Positions 58,671 through 61,604 of a DNA stretch of 64,000 nucleotides are shown piece by piece (the stretch's first letter is position 1; each line of letters begins with the position of its first letter). The position numbers and the translations under genes were made by a program. The DNA lies in the NCBI RefSeq assembly GCF_056712565.1, contig NZ_CM160072.1; one strand, given 5' to 3'. The notes beneath the pieces are model-generated. The model had not been told where the DNA came from. It saw only the letters and a list, made by a program, of their open reading frames with translations, and made no database searches.

Positions 58671-59471
58671 TTACTTGATAAATCCTGCTGCCTTTCCTCG
58701 CCTGTATTCCTCCATCAGCCACTGCGCCGGTGTTATTCCCCCCAGGGTGGCGGCGTTAGGCATGCACCCGAAACTTCGCCCTGGTGGATGGTAAACGTCT
58801 CTCCCTGTGTCCGGAGGTGTACTCATGGGCTCTGGCTTTGCCTGTATGCTGATCACCGGATCGGGTATCTGCTGTCCGGAAGCCACCTTTTTCGCCCAAT
58901 CATCGAGCAACCTGCGCGCGTGTTTCTCAACCTCAATCTCGCTAAGCTGGCGCTGATACATTGCACGGCGGGTATCACATACGACCCAGTACATAACCGG
59001 ATGCCGCCACGGGAATCTTTCGGGACCACCAGGATATAAACTTTTTTCCTTGCTGTACCGGTGAAACTCCGCCATCACATCGTCAATGGTGACGCCAAGA
59101 ACCATCTTGCTGTCTTTACACCACTTGATGAATTGCCCTGGCGACGGCCAGAACGGAGACTCACTGGCGCGAGCGTGGCGCATACCAGCAGAAACCTGTT
59201 CACGGGTTCGGATCCCACCTTCGGCAAACGCAGCAATCCACTGCTGTTTTGCAGCAACTTCCTGCTCTGGCGTCTTCAGGTTGGTTACCACTGCCGCCGG
59301 AAACAGTTGTTTCAGCTGTTTGAAAAGGGCATCAACAAGTCTCTCTGCTGACATGTTCACCACATTGTCATTGTTGACGTACTGATGCTCATAACCTGAC
59401 ATGCGAGAAAGGGCTTCTCCGTCACGGTTTTGTATCGCGGTAAAAACGTTGTTCACAAGAAATCCTCCCAT
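58671..59471 (-). CDS. Replication protein P-like (helicase loader)
   Basis: WIAAFAEGGIRTREQVSAGMRHARASESPFWPSPGQFIKWCKD resembles recalled lambda P segment. Confidence 0.7.
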   Translation of the reverse strand: MGGFLVNNVFTAIQNRDGEALSRMSGYEHQYVNNDNVVNMSAERLVDALFKQLKQLFPAAVVTNLKTPEQEVAAKQQWIAAFAEGGIRTREQVSAGMRHARASESPFWPSPGQFIKWCKDSKMVLGVTIDDVMAEFHRYSKEKSLYPGGPERFPWRHPVMYWVVCDTRRAMYQRQLSEIEVEKHARRLLDDWAKKVASGQQIPDPVISIQAKPEPMSTPPDTGRDVYHPPGRSFGCMPNAATLGGITPAQWLMEEYRRGKAAGFIK

Positions 59472-60268
59472 GCTTCAGGGCTGTTCCAGTGCGGAACGTT
59501 GTTATCAGGTAATGTTGATTGCTTCTGTCTGCTAATCTGCAGCCGCCTTGCCAGCTTCTGCTCCCACTGTGCCTGATGGTATGCCTTACCCTCAGCCATC
59601 CAGTAAATTCTGAACTCTGCAAGTTCCTGTGCCGTTGGCAGACTGTCCAGGTAGATCCCCTGCAATGAGCTTTTCCGAAGAAAGTCATCTGATGGTTGCC
59701 ATTGTTCATGCATGACAAATTTGCCTAATTGCCCTGGCCCACCAGGAGGAACAAAGTTATTCATCACGGCGTTGTTTGCGCCGGGGTCATTAGGCACAGA
59801 ATCCCCGCTTTTTGTCCTGCTCTCCCTCTCTTGGTTAAATGACTGGTTATATGACTGGTTCTGGATCCCGTTTTTGGGATCATTCAACATCCCGTTTTTG
59901 GGATCATTCAACATCCCGTTTTTGGGTATATTCCCGTTTTCGGTAACATTACCGTTTTCGGGTTCATTACCCCCTTCCCGGTTGCCTTTAATGTTCCCGT
60001 TTTTGGTTATATTAAGAGAGAAAACCCGCACTCTTTTCGTCGCTCCCTTTCTCTCTCCGGTATCTGAAATAAGCCCCATTTTCATGAGCGATATAAGCCC
60101 GGCCTGCACGGTTTTTTTATTCAGGCAAGTGTCTTTAACGAGGCGTTCTATGCTGGGGTAGCAGAGGTTATATTCATCGGCTCTGTCAGCCATCGAGAGC
60201 AGTATGAGCTTTAATGACGAGCTACCTGGATCTGTCTCCCAGGCCCAATCTGTTGCATGTCTGCTCAT
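59453..60268 (-). CDS. Replication initiator O-like protein (origin-binding)
   Basis: HTH N-terminus; internal repeated PKNG peptides encoded by iterons; RBS GGAG. Confidence 0.65.
   Translation of the reverse strand: MSRHATDWAWETDPGSSSLKLILLSMADRADEYNLCYPSIERLVKDTCLNKKTVQAGLISLMKMGLISDTGERKGATKRVRVFSLNITKNGNIKGNREGGNEPENGNVTENGNIPKNGMLNDPKNGMLNDPKNGIQNQSYNQSFNQERESRTKSGDSVPNDPGANNAVMNNFVPPGGPGQLGKFVMHEQWQPSDDFLRKSSLQGIYLDSLPTAQELAEFRIYWMAEGKAYHQAQWEQKLARRLQISRQKQSTLPDNNVPHWNSPEAWEDFL
59862..60010. repeat. Origin-like iterons inside the O-like gene
   Basis: Two exact 24-bp tandem copies CCCGTTTTTGGGATCATTCAACAT (59866, 59890) plus about 4 CCCGTTTT(T)GG variants. Confidence 0.6.
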
Positions 60269-60283
60269 GATTAATCTCCGCTA

Positions 60284-60484
60284 TCAGCTTGAATGTTGTG
60301 GGGTGGAATTAATCATGATCTGCTTAATCTCTGCCCTGATGCGACGGTTTGATTCCATGGTGCACTCAACACAGTGTCCGTTGTAAACCCAGCGTTCACT
60401 GTCATGTCCGTGCTTACATGGTTTTCCGGTGTAGTAGCGTTTAAGTCCGCGCTTTGCGGCATCAATACGTGTAATGATTTCCAT
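60284..60484 (-). CDS. Small zinc-ribbon-like protein (66 aa), cII-position gene
   Basis: ATG 60484; CKHGH...CVEC motif; between cro-like gene and O. Confidence 0.4.
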   Translation of the reverse strand: MEIITRIDAAKRGLKRYYTGKPCKHGHDSERWVYNGHCVECTMESNRRIRAEIKQIMINSTPQHSS

Positions 60485-60634: not shown

Positions 60635-60865
60635 TCATGAGTAGAAGAAGTATGCCAGTTCTGCTTTTGAGCGCAGCCATTGTCTTGTTTTACAGGCTTT
60701 AAAAAGCCCATTCATCAATACTTTACCTGGCATTTTTCGCTTACCTGTTAAGTGAGTCTGGATATAGTGACTCGTCGTTCCGGCTTCCTGTGCGAAGGCT
60801 TCACGCTCATCCGGAGTAAGTGCAAGCCAGTGCTTTTTGAAATCGAAATGTCCGTTATCGCTCAT
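60635..60865 (-). CDS. Cro-like HTH regulator (76 aa)
   Basis: Divergent from cI-like gene across the operator cluster; HTH LTPDEREAFAQEAGTTSHYIQ. Confidence 0.55.
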   Translation of the reverse strand: MSDNGHFDFKKHWLALTPDEREAFAQEAGTTSHYIQTHLTGKRKMPGKVLMNGLFKACKTRQWLRSKAELAYFFYS

Positions 60866-60901
60866 AGCTATTGCCTGATATTTATTTCAGATAATAAATA
60901 T

Positions 60902-60964
60902 TCACCCATAAGGTAACAAAAATCAAGGATAGTTACCTATGAGGTGCATTTACCTGTTGGGTAA
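60902..60964. promoter_or_regulatory. OR-like tripartite operator region between cro-like and cI-like genes
   Basis: TCACCCATAAGGTAA (60902), TTACCTATGAGGTGC (60933), TTACCTGTTGGGTAA (60950). Confidence 0.5.
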
Positions 60965-61019: not shown

Positions 61020-61604
61020 ATGAAAAGTATCCAGGACGTCCGCAGGCAAAATCTCAACGACTTGATCGACCGTGAATTCAATGGTGTTCAGACGCGGATG
61101 GCAGAAAAACTTGGAACTCAGGCAAATCTGGTAAACCGCTGGGCTCTTGGCAAGAAGGTTATCGGCGACCAGGTTGCGCGAAAAATTGAAGCTGCCGCCA
61201 ATAAACCCCGTAACTGGCTTGATATCGATCGCTCGCTTTCTCAGGAAGGTTTTCAGCCTGTCGGCCCAAGCGACATTGGTCAGCTGGCGGCTCACAACCT
61301 GGAACGCTGGATGAGCGAAAGCCGCGACCTTTCAACACAGGGAAAACTTCACCGCGCATCCGGCGTCGCCCAGGTGACAATCAGCCGCCTGTTAAACAAT
61401 GAGGTCAGCGTTTCCATTTCCACCCTGGAGAATGTTGCATCCGCATTCGGGCGTCACGGCTATGAATTACTGATTCACCCGCACGACCCTGCGACTATCA
61501 ACTATGACCGCTCGCGCTACGCATTGTTACCCGAAACAGAGAAGGCAAAGATCGAAAGTTACATTGAATTTGTCATCAGCCAGAACGAAAAAAACAAACA
61601 ATAA
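61020..61604 (+). CDS. CI-like repressor, HTH type, no recognisable LexA-type autocleavage domain
   Basis: 194 aa, two HTH-like segments, no Ala-Gly/Ser-Lys S24 motifs; followed by terminator. Confidence 0.65.
   Translation: MKSIQDVRRQNLNDLIDREFNGVQTRMAEKLGTQANLVNRWALGKKVIGDQVARKIEAAANKPRNWLDIDRSLSQEGFQPVGPSDIGQLAAHNLERWMSESRDLSTQGKLHRASGVAQVTISRLLNNEVSVSISTLENVASAFGRHGYELLIHPHDPATINYDRSRYALLPETEKAKIESYIEFVISQNEKNKQ

Follow-up and report, generated by a model that had tools for sequence, protein, structure and literature searches.

The repeat array and the gene that carries it

The stretch of DNA analysed here, hereafter the window, comprises 64,000 nucleotides (nt) of contig NZ_CM160072.1 from NCBI RefSeq assembly GCF_056712565.1. 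It contains a prophage replication-initiator gene, on the minus strand, whose middle part carries a row of short direct repeats. This region shows 97% identity to phage phiV10 (genus Uetakevirus) and 100% identity to a prophage of Escherichia coli 04-00955. An initial annotation had described the repeats as the iteron array of an origin lying inside a replication gene like gene O of phage lambda. The gene, the two folded domains of its product and the six repeat copies, numbered as iterons in the direction of the gene, are as follows (aa, amino acids; bp, base pairs).

59453-60268, minus strand: replication-initiator gene, 271 aa, with a winged-helix N-domain, a disordered linker and a DnaT-like C-domain
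60002-60268, minus strand: N-terminal winged-helix DNA-binding domain (aa 1-89), the presumed reader of the iterons, assigned with AlphaFold2 and Foldseek and kept across relatives
59513-59719, minus strand: DnaT-like C-terminal domain (aa 184-252), assigned with Pfam PF17948 and Foldseek
59994-60009, minus strand: iteron 1, the first in gene direction; gene strand TAACCAAAAACGGGAA, core CCAAAAACGG at 59997-60006
59949-59964, minus strand: iteron 2; gene strand AACCCGAAAACGGTAA, core CCGAAAACGG at 59952-59961
59931-59946, minus strand: iteron 3; gene strand TTACCGAAAACGGGAA, core CCGAAAACGG at 59934-59943
59913-59928, minus strand: iteron 4; gene strand TACCCAAAAACGGGAT, core at 59916-59925
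59889-59904, minus strand: iteron 5, ATCCCAAAAACGGGAT; lies in an exact 24-bp unit, has perfect 5-bp dyad arms and includes GATC
59865-59880, minus strand: iteron 6, the last, ATCCCAAAAACGGGAT; belongs to an exact 24-bp unit and includes GATC

The encoded protein matched the Pfam family HTH_36 at aa 18-67 (E 1.8e-10; 43 bits) and the Pfam DnaT domain PF17948 at aa 184-252 (E 1.2e-15), and its match to PHROG 1032, 'replication initiation protein', ran from end to end (E 1.4e-108). The structure predicted with AlphaFold2 consists of a winged helix with four helices and a beta hairpin at aa 1-89 (predicted local distance difference test, pLDDT, 77-93), a disordered stretch at aa 90-182 (pLDDT <35) and a helical domain at aa 184-251. 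Foldseek matched the N-domain to many winged-helix DNA binders and the C-domain to the single-stranded DNA (ssDNA)-binding domain of DnaT (4OU6/6AEQ), with 54% identity over 67 columns. The C-domain is presumed to recruit a complex of loader and helicase or to bind single-stranded DNA. RefSeq names the gene product 'DnaT-like ssDNA-binding domain-containing protein', and the phiV10 record calls it 'replication initiation protein'. Two other database names for the window gene, 'primosomal protein I' and 'pyocin large subunit', are misleading; 'primosomal protein' and 'DnaT' fit the C-domain only.

Six same-strand copies of CCRAAAACGG, the best of which read ATCCCAAAAACGGGAT, were found on the minus strand at 59865-60017. 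A repeat-family search joined them into one six-copy family with starts at 59865, 59889, 59913, 59931, 59949 and 59994 and spacings of 24, 24, 18, 18 and 45 bp. Tandem Repeats Finder reported a period of 24 at 59865-59926 (2.6 copies, 100% matches, plus-strand unit ATCCCGTTTTTGGGATCATTCAAC) and a period of 18 at 59916-59971 (3.1 copies). The two exact 24-bp tandem repeats of the initial annotation were recovered in this way together with the PKNGMLND units that they encode, as were the motif variants spaced at roughly 18-24 bp, to which one spacing of 45 bp has to be added; the array does lie within a coding sequence, the minus-strand open reading frame (ORF) at 59453-60268, and the limits first proposed for it, 59862-60010, were essentially right. 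The motif originally given, CCCGTTTTBGG, has seven matches in the 64 kb when up to one mismatch is allowed, six of them inside the array. A family-wide core, CCRAWWWYGG, was derived from relatives of the window gene. Of its 11 window matches, six form a minus-strand cluster at 59868-60006 and five are scattered singletons; no second cluster of this core was seen anywhere in the 64-kb window. Shuffling gave a mean of 5.0 matches per 64-kb window, and about 0.012 matches are expected in 150 bp. The cluster of six cores is far beyond chance, bearing in mind that the six copies are not independent and that at least some were produced by tandem duplication.

The best copies are dyads with a central A-tract (ATCCC-AAAAAC-GGGAT). 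Perfect ATCCC/GGGAT arms are present in three of the six direct repeats, and the other copies keep CC-N6-GG. Such dyads might act as RNA or single-strand structure, that is, as a structured mRNA element or an antisense terminator. The RNA fold of 59826-60024 (gene strand) had z = -3.1, and two terminator-like hairpins were flagged on the plus strand at 59875 and 59899. This fold is, however, what a row of short palindromes gives, and the corresponding fold of single-stranded DNA was not significant (z = -1.8). The flagged stems, in which arms of adjacent iterons pair, are weak (six pairs, three G-C), the region's count of terminator-like sites lies within what shuffling gives, and no Rfam match was obtained. 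A structural role of this kind is regarded as extremely improbable.

Two further features of the array were observed. In the 45-bp gap between iterons 1 and 2, CCGGGAAGGG (gene strand, 59972-59990) has three mismatches to the core, stands out of frame and may be a decayed iteron. Three GATC (Dam) sites occur within about 53 bp (59862-59914), in the last three iteron units, the window-wide frequency being about one per 270 bp; because these sites belong to the repeated unit, their enrichment was not counted as independent evidence. Adenine-methylase genes adjoin the initiator gene in the related viruses Her, AB1, AP22 and EBPR, and an MT-A70 methyltransferase gene lies near the array in the window prophage; an origin under methylation control is possible.

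The iterons occupy gene nt 259-404 (cores nt 263-401) and encode aa 87-135, or aa 87-140 when set against the structure model, between the folded N- and C-domains. Since the DNA-binding domain ends at aa 89 and disorder begins at aa 90, the array starts at the last codons of that domain and encodes the front half of the linker. The peptide encoded by the repeats reads ...NITKNGN...NEPENGNVTENGNIPKNGMLNDPKNGMLNDPKNGIQ..., also given as ...TKNGN...PENGNVTENGNIPKNGMLNDPKNGMLNDPKNGIQ..., and all six window copies are translated in a common reading frame, each of the five spacings (45, 18, 18, 24 and 24) being a multiple of three. These properties would also be expected of a low-complexity peptide linker of PKNGMLND units that was made by slippage and has no function at the DNA level, an account further favoured by the freely varying copy number and by the predicted disorder of the encoded segment. 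Because the six copies share their frame, the window alone cannot separate selection on the DNA from selection on the peptide, and the separation rests on relatives.

The motif in related initiator genes

A tblastn search of phage genomes with the N-domain returned 124 records, most of them below 60% identity, and eight diverse homologues were examined. A repeat array was found at gene nt ~260-480 in all eight, and no origin is annotated in the phage homologue records examined. The repeat is ATCCCAAAATTGGGA in Edwardsiella phage GF-2 (three copies, 24 bp) and CCCGAAAACGGTACTTTGAATAGG in Vibrio phage Her (four full 24-bp units and a fifth core copy). Bcep176 has GGAAACAGTCCCAAA-type units at 22 bp, which places successive copies in all three frames. 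In the EBPR podovirus GTCCCAAAAACGGGAC, GTACCGAAAACGGAAC and GTCCCGAAATCGGGAC are translated as TKNG, QKRD and PKTE, and in PPompW and GF-2 ACCCAAAAACGGGA is translated once as TQKR and elsewhere as PKNG, so that each of these three translates one DNA motif in more than one frame (two or three). Motif, position and orientation are kept across initiators that are 42-57% identical and come from phages of Vibrio, Edwardsiella, Acinetobacter and Burkholderia and from uncultured viral contigs. In three PPompW-like relatives an inverted iteron copy (e.g. ATCCCGTTTTTTCCG) was also observed before the last direct copy, at ~nt 395-445 of the gene.

The comparison was extended to 80 further diverse viral-contig loci, which yielded 67 distinct proteins. 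At least three sense-strand CCRAWWWYGG motifs lie at gene nt 250-520 in 60 of these 67 relatives, as they do in the window gene (six), and in 43 relatives of this survey the motifs stand in mixed frames. Motif density was 13.2 per kb at nt 250-520, as against 0.19 per kb elsewhere in the gene and 0 in the flanks. Variant repeats, for example GCCCATATACGGG, GTCCCAACGTTGGGAC and GAAGCAGGTGCAG, are present in the exceptions. Repeat specificity follows the N-domain, the Stx2a_F403 protein, which is 29% identical, having different repeats.

Variation within the window gene type was examined separately. In 40 distinct alleles, counted among those with fewer than 50 differences, polymorphic sites numbered 2 of 60 in the iteron cores, 14 of 84 in the spacers of the array and 18 of 109 in the remaining linker. 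The cores are about five-fold less variable than the spacers (Fisher p = 0.014; p = 0.008 against the rest of the linker). The pattern fits conservation at the DNA level but is a weaker test than the reading frames, because it draws on few sites from related sequences and because repeats may have converted one another. The best 120 homologous-protein matches were near-identical E. coli proteins only and served for length polymorphism. Motif copies number 4-8 among 79 near-identical genes, the change always being by whole 18- or 24-bp units, and gene lengths in near-identical prophages are mostly 792-858 nt, with two shorter alleles of 549 and 696 nt. One database allele of 311 aa has eight PKNGMLND units and a further PKNG copy, probably 11 copies in total. 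The copy number could be used for strain typing, and its variation amounts to a natural experiment in which iteron number can be set against linker length.

Because the relatives read the motif in different frames, the conserved object is the DNA motif with its orientation and place, and not the peptide; a repeat maintained purely at the peptide level is ruled out on this ground. A slippage-made linker is also at odds with spacings such as 22, 26, 35 and 47 bp among relatives, with the dyad symmetry of the motif, with a motif density some 70-fold above that of the rest of the gene, and with a polymorphism that is lower in the cores than in the spacers of that linker, and it is considered very unlikely. 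What the repeats encode is a by-product that is tolerated, namely a flexible linker that lengthens or shortens with iteron number.

In relatives, the N-domain and its iterons are fused to differing C-termini, lambda-O-type ones among them, and some of these genes stand beside DnaB-type helicase genes. Phage GF-2 (nt 1501-2343 of the locus) is a natural hybrid in which a window-type N-domain with its iterons is fused to a lambda-O-type C-terminus. Its right ori arm, GAGAATTCTGACGAATCCTCAGAC, resembles that of lambda, GAGAATTCTGGCGAATCCTCTGAC, with the GAATTC site included, and a P-family gene adjoins. Across these fusions a winged helix with its own iterons thus behaves as an exchangeable origin-recognition module. 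Lambda genetics established the same behaviour for O.

Flanking elements and comparison with lambda

The array is flanked by the two least stable 25-bp stretches of the gene, the downstream one coinciding in part with a second, shorter tandem repeat.

59832-59860, minus strand: 12-bp tandem repeat TGGTTAAATGAC, 2.4 copies (Tandem Repeats Finder); gene strand AACCAGTCATAT / AACCAGTCATTT / AACCA
60000-60024, no strand assigned: alternative unwinding site; the gene's least stable 25-bp stretch (GC content 0.20), which overlaps iteron 1 at the array's upstream edge

The 12-bp AACCAGTCAT repeat (two copies and a partial third) lies directly downstream of the last iteron, in the position of lambda's AT-rich tract. 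Its copy number varies, with three copies in phiV10. In a stability scan 59828-59852 was one of the two least stable stretches, with a GC content of 0.32 (68% AT). The AACCAGTCAT repeat at 59832-59860 is a candidate for an unwinding or loading element, or for an array of half-sites.

Comparable elements were found in relatives. RGAAYC-type repeats, two to four in number and spaced at 9-13 bp, follow the last iteron in nearly all of them, examples being GAACCAGTCAT in Her, GGAACAGTAG in Bcep176 and GGAATC/GGAACC in the PPompW group. Phages differ in the frame in which they translate the junction GGGACACAGAAC, and an RGAAYC-type element is present in Stx2a_F403 too, despite its unrelated iterons. 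The pentamers GAATC, GGAAC and GAACC are 8-21x enriched in the post-iteron stretch relative to the rest of the genes, in sequences that are not independent of one another. The origins of the HTH_36 initiator family might conceivably use this RGAAYC-type second element and not an AT-rich unwinding tract, although we hold this to be unlikely. If it were true, the element, which is kept as DNA across frames, could be either an array of half-sites for initiator monomers or a loading or melting site; the ssDNA-binding C-domain of the DnaT-like variants might hold it open, and the route from iteron binding to helicase loading would differ from that of lambda.

The HTH_36 initiators of GF-2, Vibrio phage Her, the Acinetobacter phages AB1/AP22, Burkholderia phage Bcep176 and the E. 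coli PPompW prophages, whose N-domains are 42-57% identical to that of the window protein, resemble the window gene in having both CCRAWWWYGG-type iterons at the same gene position and RGAAYC-type repeats. They differ from it in their C-termini and partners, which are of lambda-O type with P in GF-2 and include a DnaB-type helicase in AB1/AP22, and in the spacing and frames of their iterons.

In the lambda record, four iterons are annotated at gene O nt 349-433, with spacings of 20, 24 and 23, directly after PF04492 at aa 22-115. As in lambda, the window array lies inside the initiator gene, begins right after the N-terminal DNA-binding domain and encodes the linker. The next gene in both is a P-family loader gene that overlaps the initiator gene, and the order of repressor, cro, cII-position gene, initiator and loader is the same. 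The lambda iterons TCCCTCAAAACGAGGGA (TCCCTC-AAAAC-GAGGGA) and the ATCCCAAAAACGGGAT of the window have TCCC/GGGA arms and an A-tract centre in common. Unlike lambda, the window has six iterons in place of four, with arms of 5 and not 6 bp, a centre one bp longer and all copies in one frame; it has no 80%-AT tract, and the 12-bp AACCAGTCAT repeat stands in that place. The C-domain also differs, being DnaT-like and not lambda-O-type. The N-terminal parts of the window protein and of lambda O both match PHROGs 678 and 345, which suggests remote homology. The lambda-like arrangement originally proposed is borne out in the position in the gene, the layout and the P-type neighbour; the description of the gene as O-like holds for its architecture and for a remote PHROG-level link, and not for the Pfam family or the C-domain. 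These comparisons support a lambda-style origin within an initiator gene, in this case with a different (HTH_36 / DnaT-like) initiator. The initiator family is other than that of lambda O, and the probable origin is unannotated in the public records examined.

Four iterons, located midway along gene O, are bound by lambda O; the Stx phages have six, and P22 and L have repeats of their own in gene 18 that have been proposed to serve the same purpose (PMC7466680, PMC8022706). In the Stx phages 933W and P27 the six iterons lengthen the O protein, and only some copies may bind strongly (PMC7466680). The window type, with its 4-8 copies, is like 933W and P27 in having an iteron number that differs from lambda's four and alters protein length; it is unlike them in that their O proteins are near lambda O and their iterons are of lambda type, whereas the window protein and motif represent another family. 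Short mid-gene repeats in gene 18 of Salmonella phage L and of P22 have been interpreted as the origin (PMC8022706), and a rep_origin feature is given in the phage L record. These phages and the window thus both have distinct short repeats midway along an initiator gene; unlike the window, phage L has a clear AT-rich tract and a DnaB-type helicase partner instead of a P-like loader. Gene 18 of phage L was considered as a member of the present family and rejected (BLASTP E 0.87, no HTH_36 match, different repeats TGTCCAACGGA).

The probable origin in its prophage setting

Taken together, the clustering, the conservation across frames and the gene layout make it probable, to a good degree of confidence, that the array is the iteron part of the prophage replication origin and lies within the gene for its own binding protein. 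Binding of the initiator to the repeats could alternatively serve autoregulation, copy control or a transcription roadblock, with the true origin elsewhere. Plasmid iterons double as control elements, the array lies inside a transcribed gene and no strong AT-rich unwinding tract adjoins it, all of which would suit such a role. Set against this, the array is the sole motif cluster in the 64-kb window, its position matches the proven origin of lambda, the iterons of GF-2 are joined to a lambda-type right ori arm, and the last iteron is followed by another conserved repeat element, which a composite origin would lead one to expect. A purely regulatory role is disfavoured chiefly by the sole cluster in 64 kb and by the GF-2 junction with the right ori arm, and it is judged improbable.

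Several points nevertheless weigh against assigning the origin to the array. Binding sites of an initiator need not be the site of initiation. The copies in the window stand in a single frame, and gene conversion between repeats could also reduce core diversity, which was in addition measured at few sites in related sequences. There is no strongly AT-rich tract like the ~40 bp of lambda, the best candidate having 32% GC over 25 bp and the array region 40-45% GC. The N-domain belongs to HTH_36 and has no match to PF04492 (Phage_rep_O) even at E <= 1, a family that lambda O matches with 123 bits. A literature search found no report of origin activity or binding in phiV10-type phages or epsilon15, the epsilon15 genome paper lying outside that search.

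The array stands in a replication module with the order repressor, cro-like gene, cII-position gene, initiator and lambda-P-like loader. The remaining features of this module are listed below.

58671-59471, minus strand: helicase-loader gene of the lambda P family; PF06992 (E 1.5e-56), PHROG 109 'P-like helicase loader', RefSeq 'replication protein P'
60284-60484, minus strand: small gene in cII position, upstream of the initiator gene in the same operon; an ORF, 'hypothetical protein' in RefSeq and phiV10
60635-60865, minus strand: small gene in cro position, the first of the rightward-type operon that reads through the array; ORF and annotation
60891-60919, minus strand: promoter-like site TTGTTA-17-TATTAT in pR position, between the divergent repressor and cro-like genes; from a consensus scan only
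61020-61604, plus strand: divergent helix-turn-helix (HTH) repressor gene (immunity); Pfam HTH_3, noted as 'putative repressor' in phiV10

A Pfam search with the cII-position gene gave no match. The 3' end of the initiator gene is shared with the P-like gene (59453-59471), whose longest ORF starts with ATG at 59471; the start chosen by RefSeq is a GTG at 59456 that overlaps the TGA stop. The overlap suggests that the two genes may be translationally coupled. By gene order and strand the array lies inside an early operon of rightward type, and transcription from the pR-like site would cross it.

With lambda O/ori (PMC7466680) as a model, and given the domain assignments, a possible course of initiation can be sketched. 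After derepression, the pR-like promoter would transcribe the operon through the array and so yield the initiator. Dimers of the N-domain would bind the iterons at their CCC/GGG half-sites and build a bent nucleoprotein complex on the phased A-tracts. A flank would then be destabilised or opened, most likely at the AACCAGTCAT repeats at 59832-59860, and the DnaT-like C-domain would bring in the P-like protein carrying host DnaB. Standing beside a P-type loader, the DnaT-like domain may itself bind the opened strand.

The array marks a probable origin for a prophage type whose public records name the gene after DnaT and carry no origin annotation; the phiV10 record annotates terminators and no origin. 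The initiator gene is present in 423 of 5426 complete E. coli genomes (~8%), strains that make Shiga toxin (STEC) among them. For phage initiators of HTH_36 type a rule may be formulated, namely that CCRAWWWYGG arrays should be sought right after the winged-helix codons, and it would make origin annotation feasible in many Vibrio, Acinetobacter, Burkholderia and enterobacterial phages. With regard to modular evolution, a DNA-binding domain and its own sites travel together and recombine with different helicase-recruiting domains. The general understanding of phage replication is unchanged; the placing of an origin in an initiator gene has long been known from lambda and will not surprise specialists.

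Other genes with a DnaT-like domain were compared with the window gene. In E. coli DnaT (primosomal protein I) it is the ssDNA-binding domain that corresponds to the C-domain of the window protein (PF17948, 54% identity). DnaT has no winged-helix origin-binding domain and works in PriA-dependent restart, not at iterons. Unlike full-length DnaT, the window protein has as its N-terminal half a winged helix and an iteron-encoded linker, and it belongs to a phage replication module. The Rac prophage has an experimentally known origin, oriJ, and its gene ydaU was considered as a link to a proven origin; it was rejected, as only the DnaT-like C-terminus is common to both genes and ydaU has no CCRAWWWYGG array. 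Salmonella phage SPN1S, from the genus of phiV10, was set aside as well, having a DnaT-like C-terminus with a different N-domain, no array and no P-like gene. The regions compared were nt 1003-1818 of the SPN1S locus and nt 880-1950 of the Rac-SA53 locus. In SPN1S and in ydaU of Rac-SA53 a AGATCTAAAAGA..AAACCCCACACATAG stretch upstream of the DnaT-like domain resembles AAAGATCTAAACCCCACACATAG of the PPompW-type relatives, and this stretch may be a recombination junction. An immunity and replication module like that of phiV10 was also found near one end of the 138-kb Vequintavirus record of phage BP9 (PP488543.1, 131937-138295) and near one end of the unannotated 115-kb record PH444 (PP350014.1); both records are probably chimeric assemblies or contaminated with prophage DNA.

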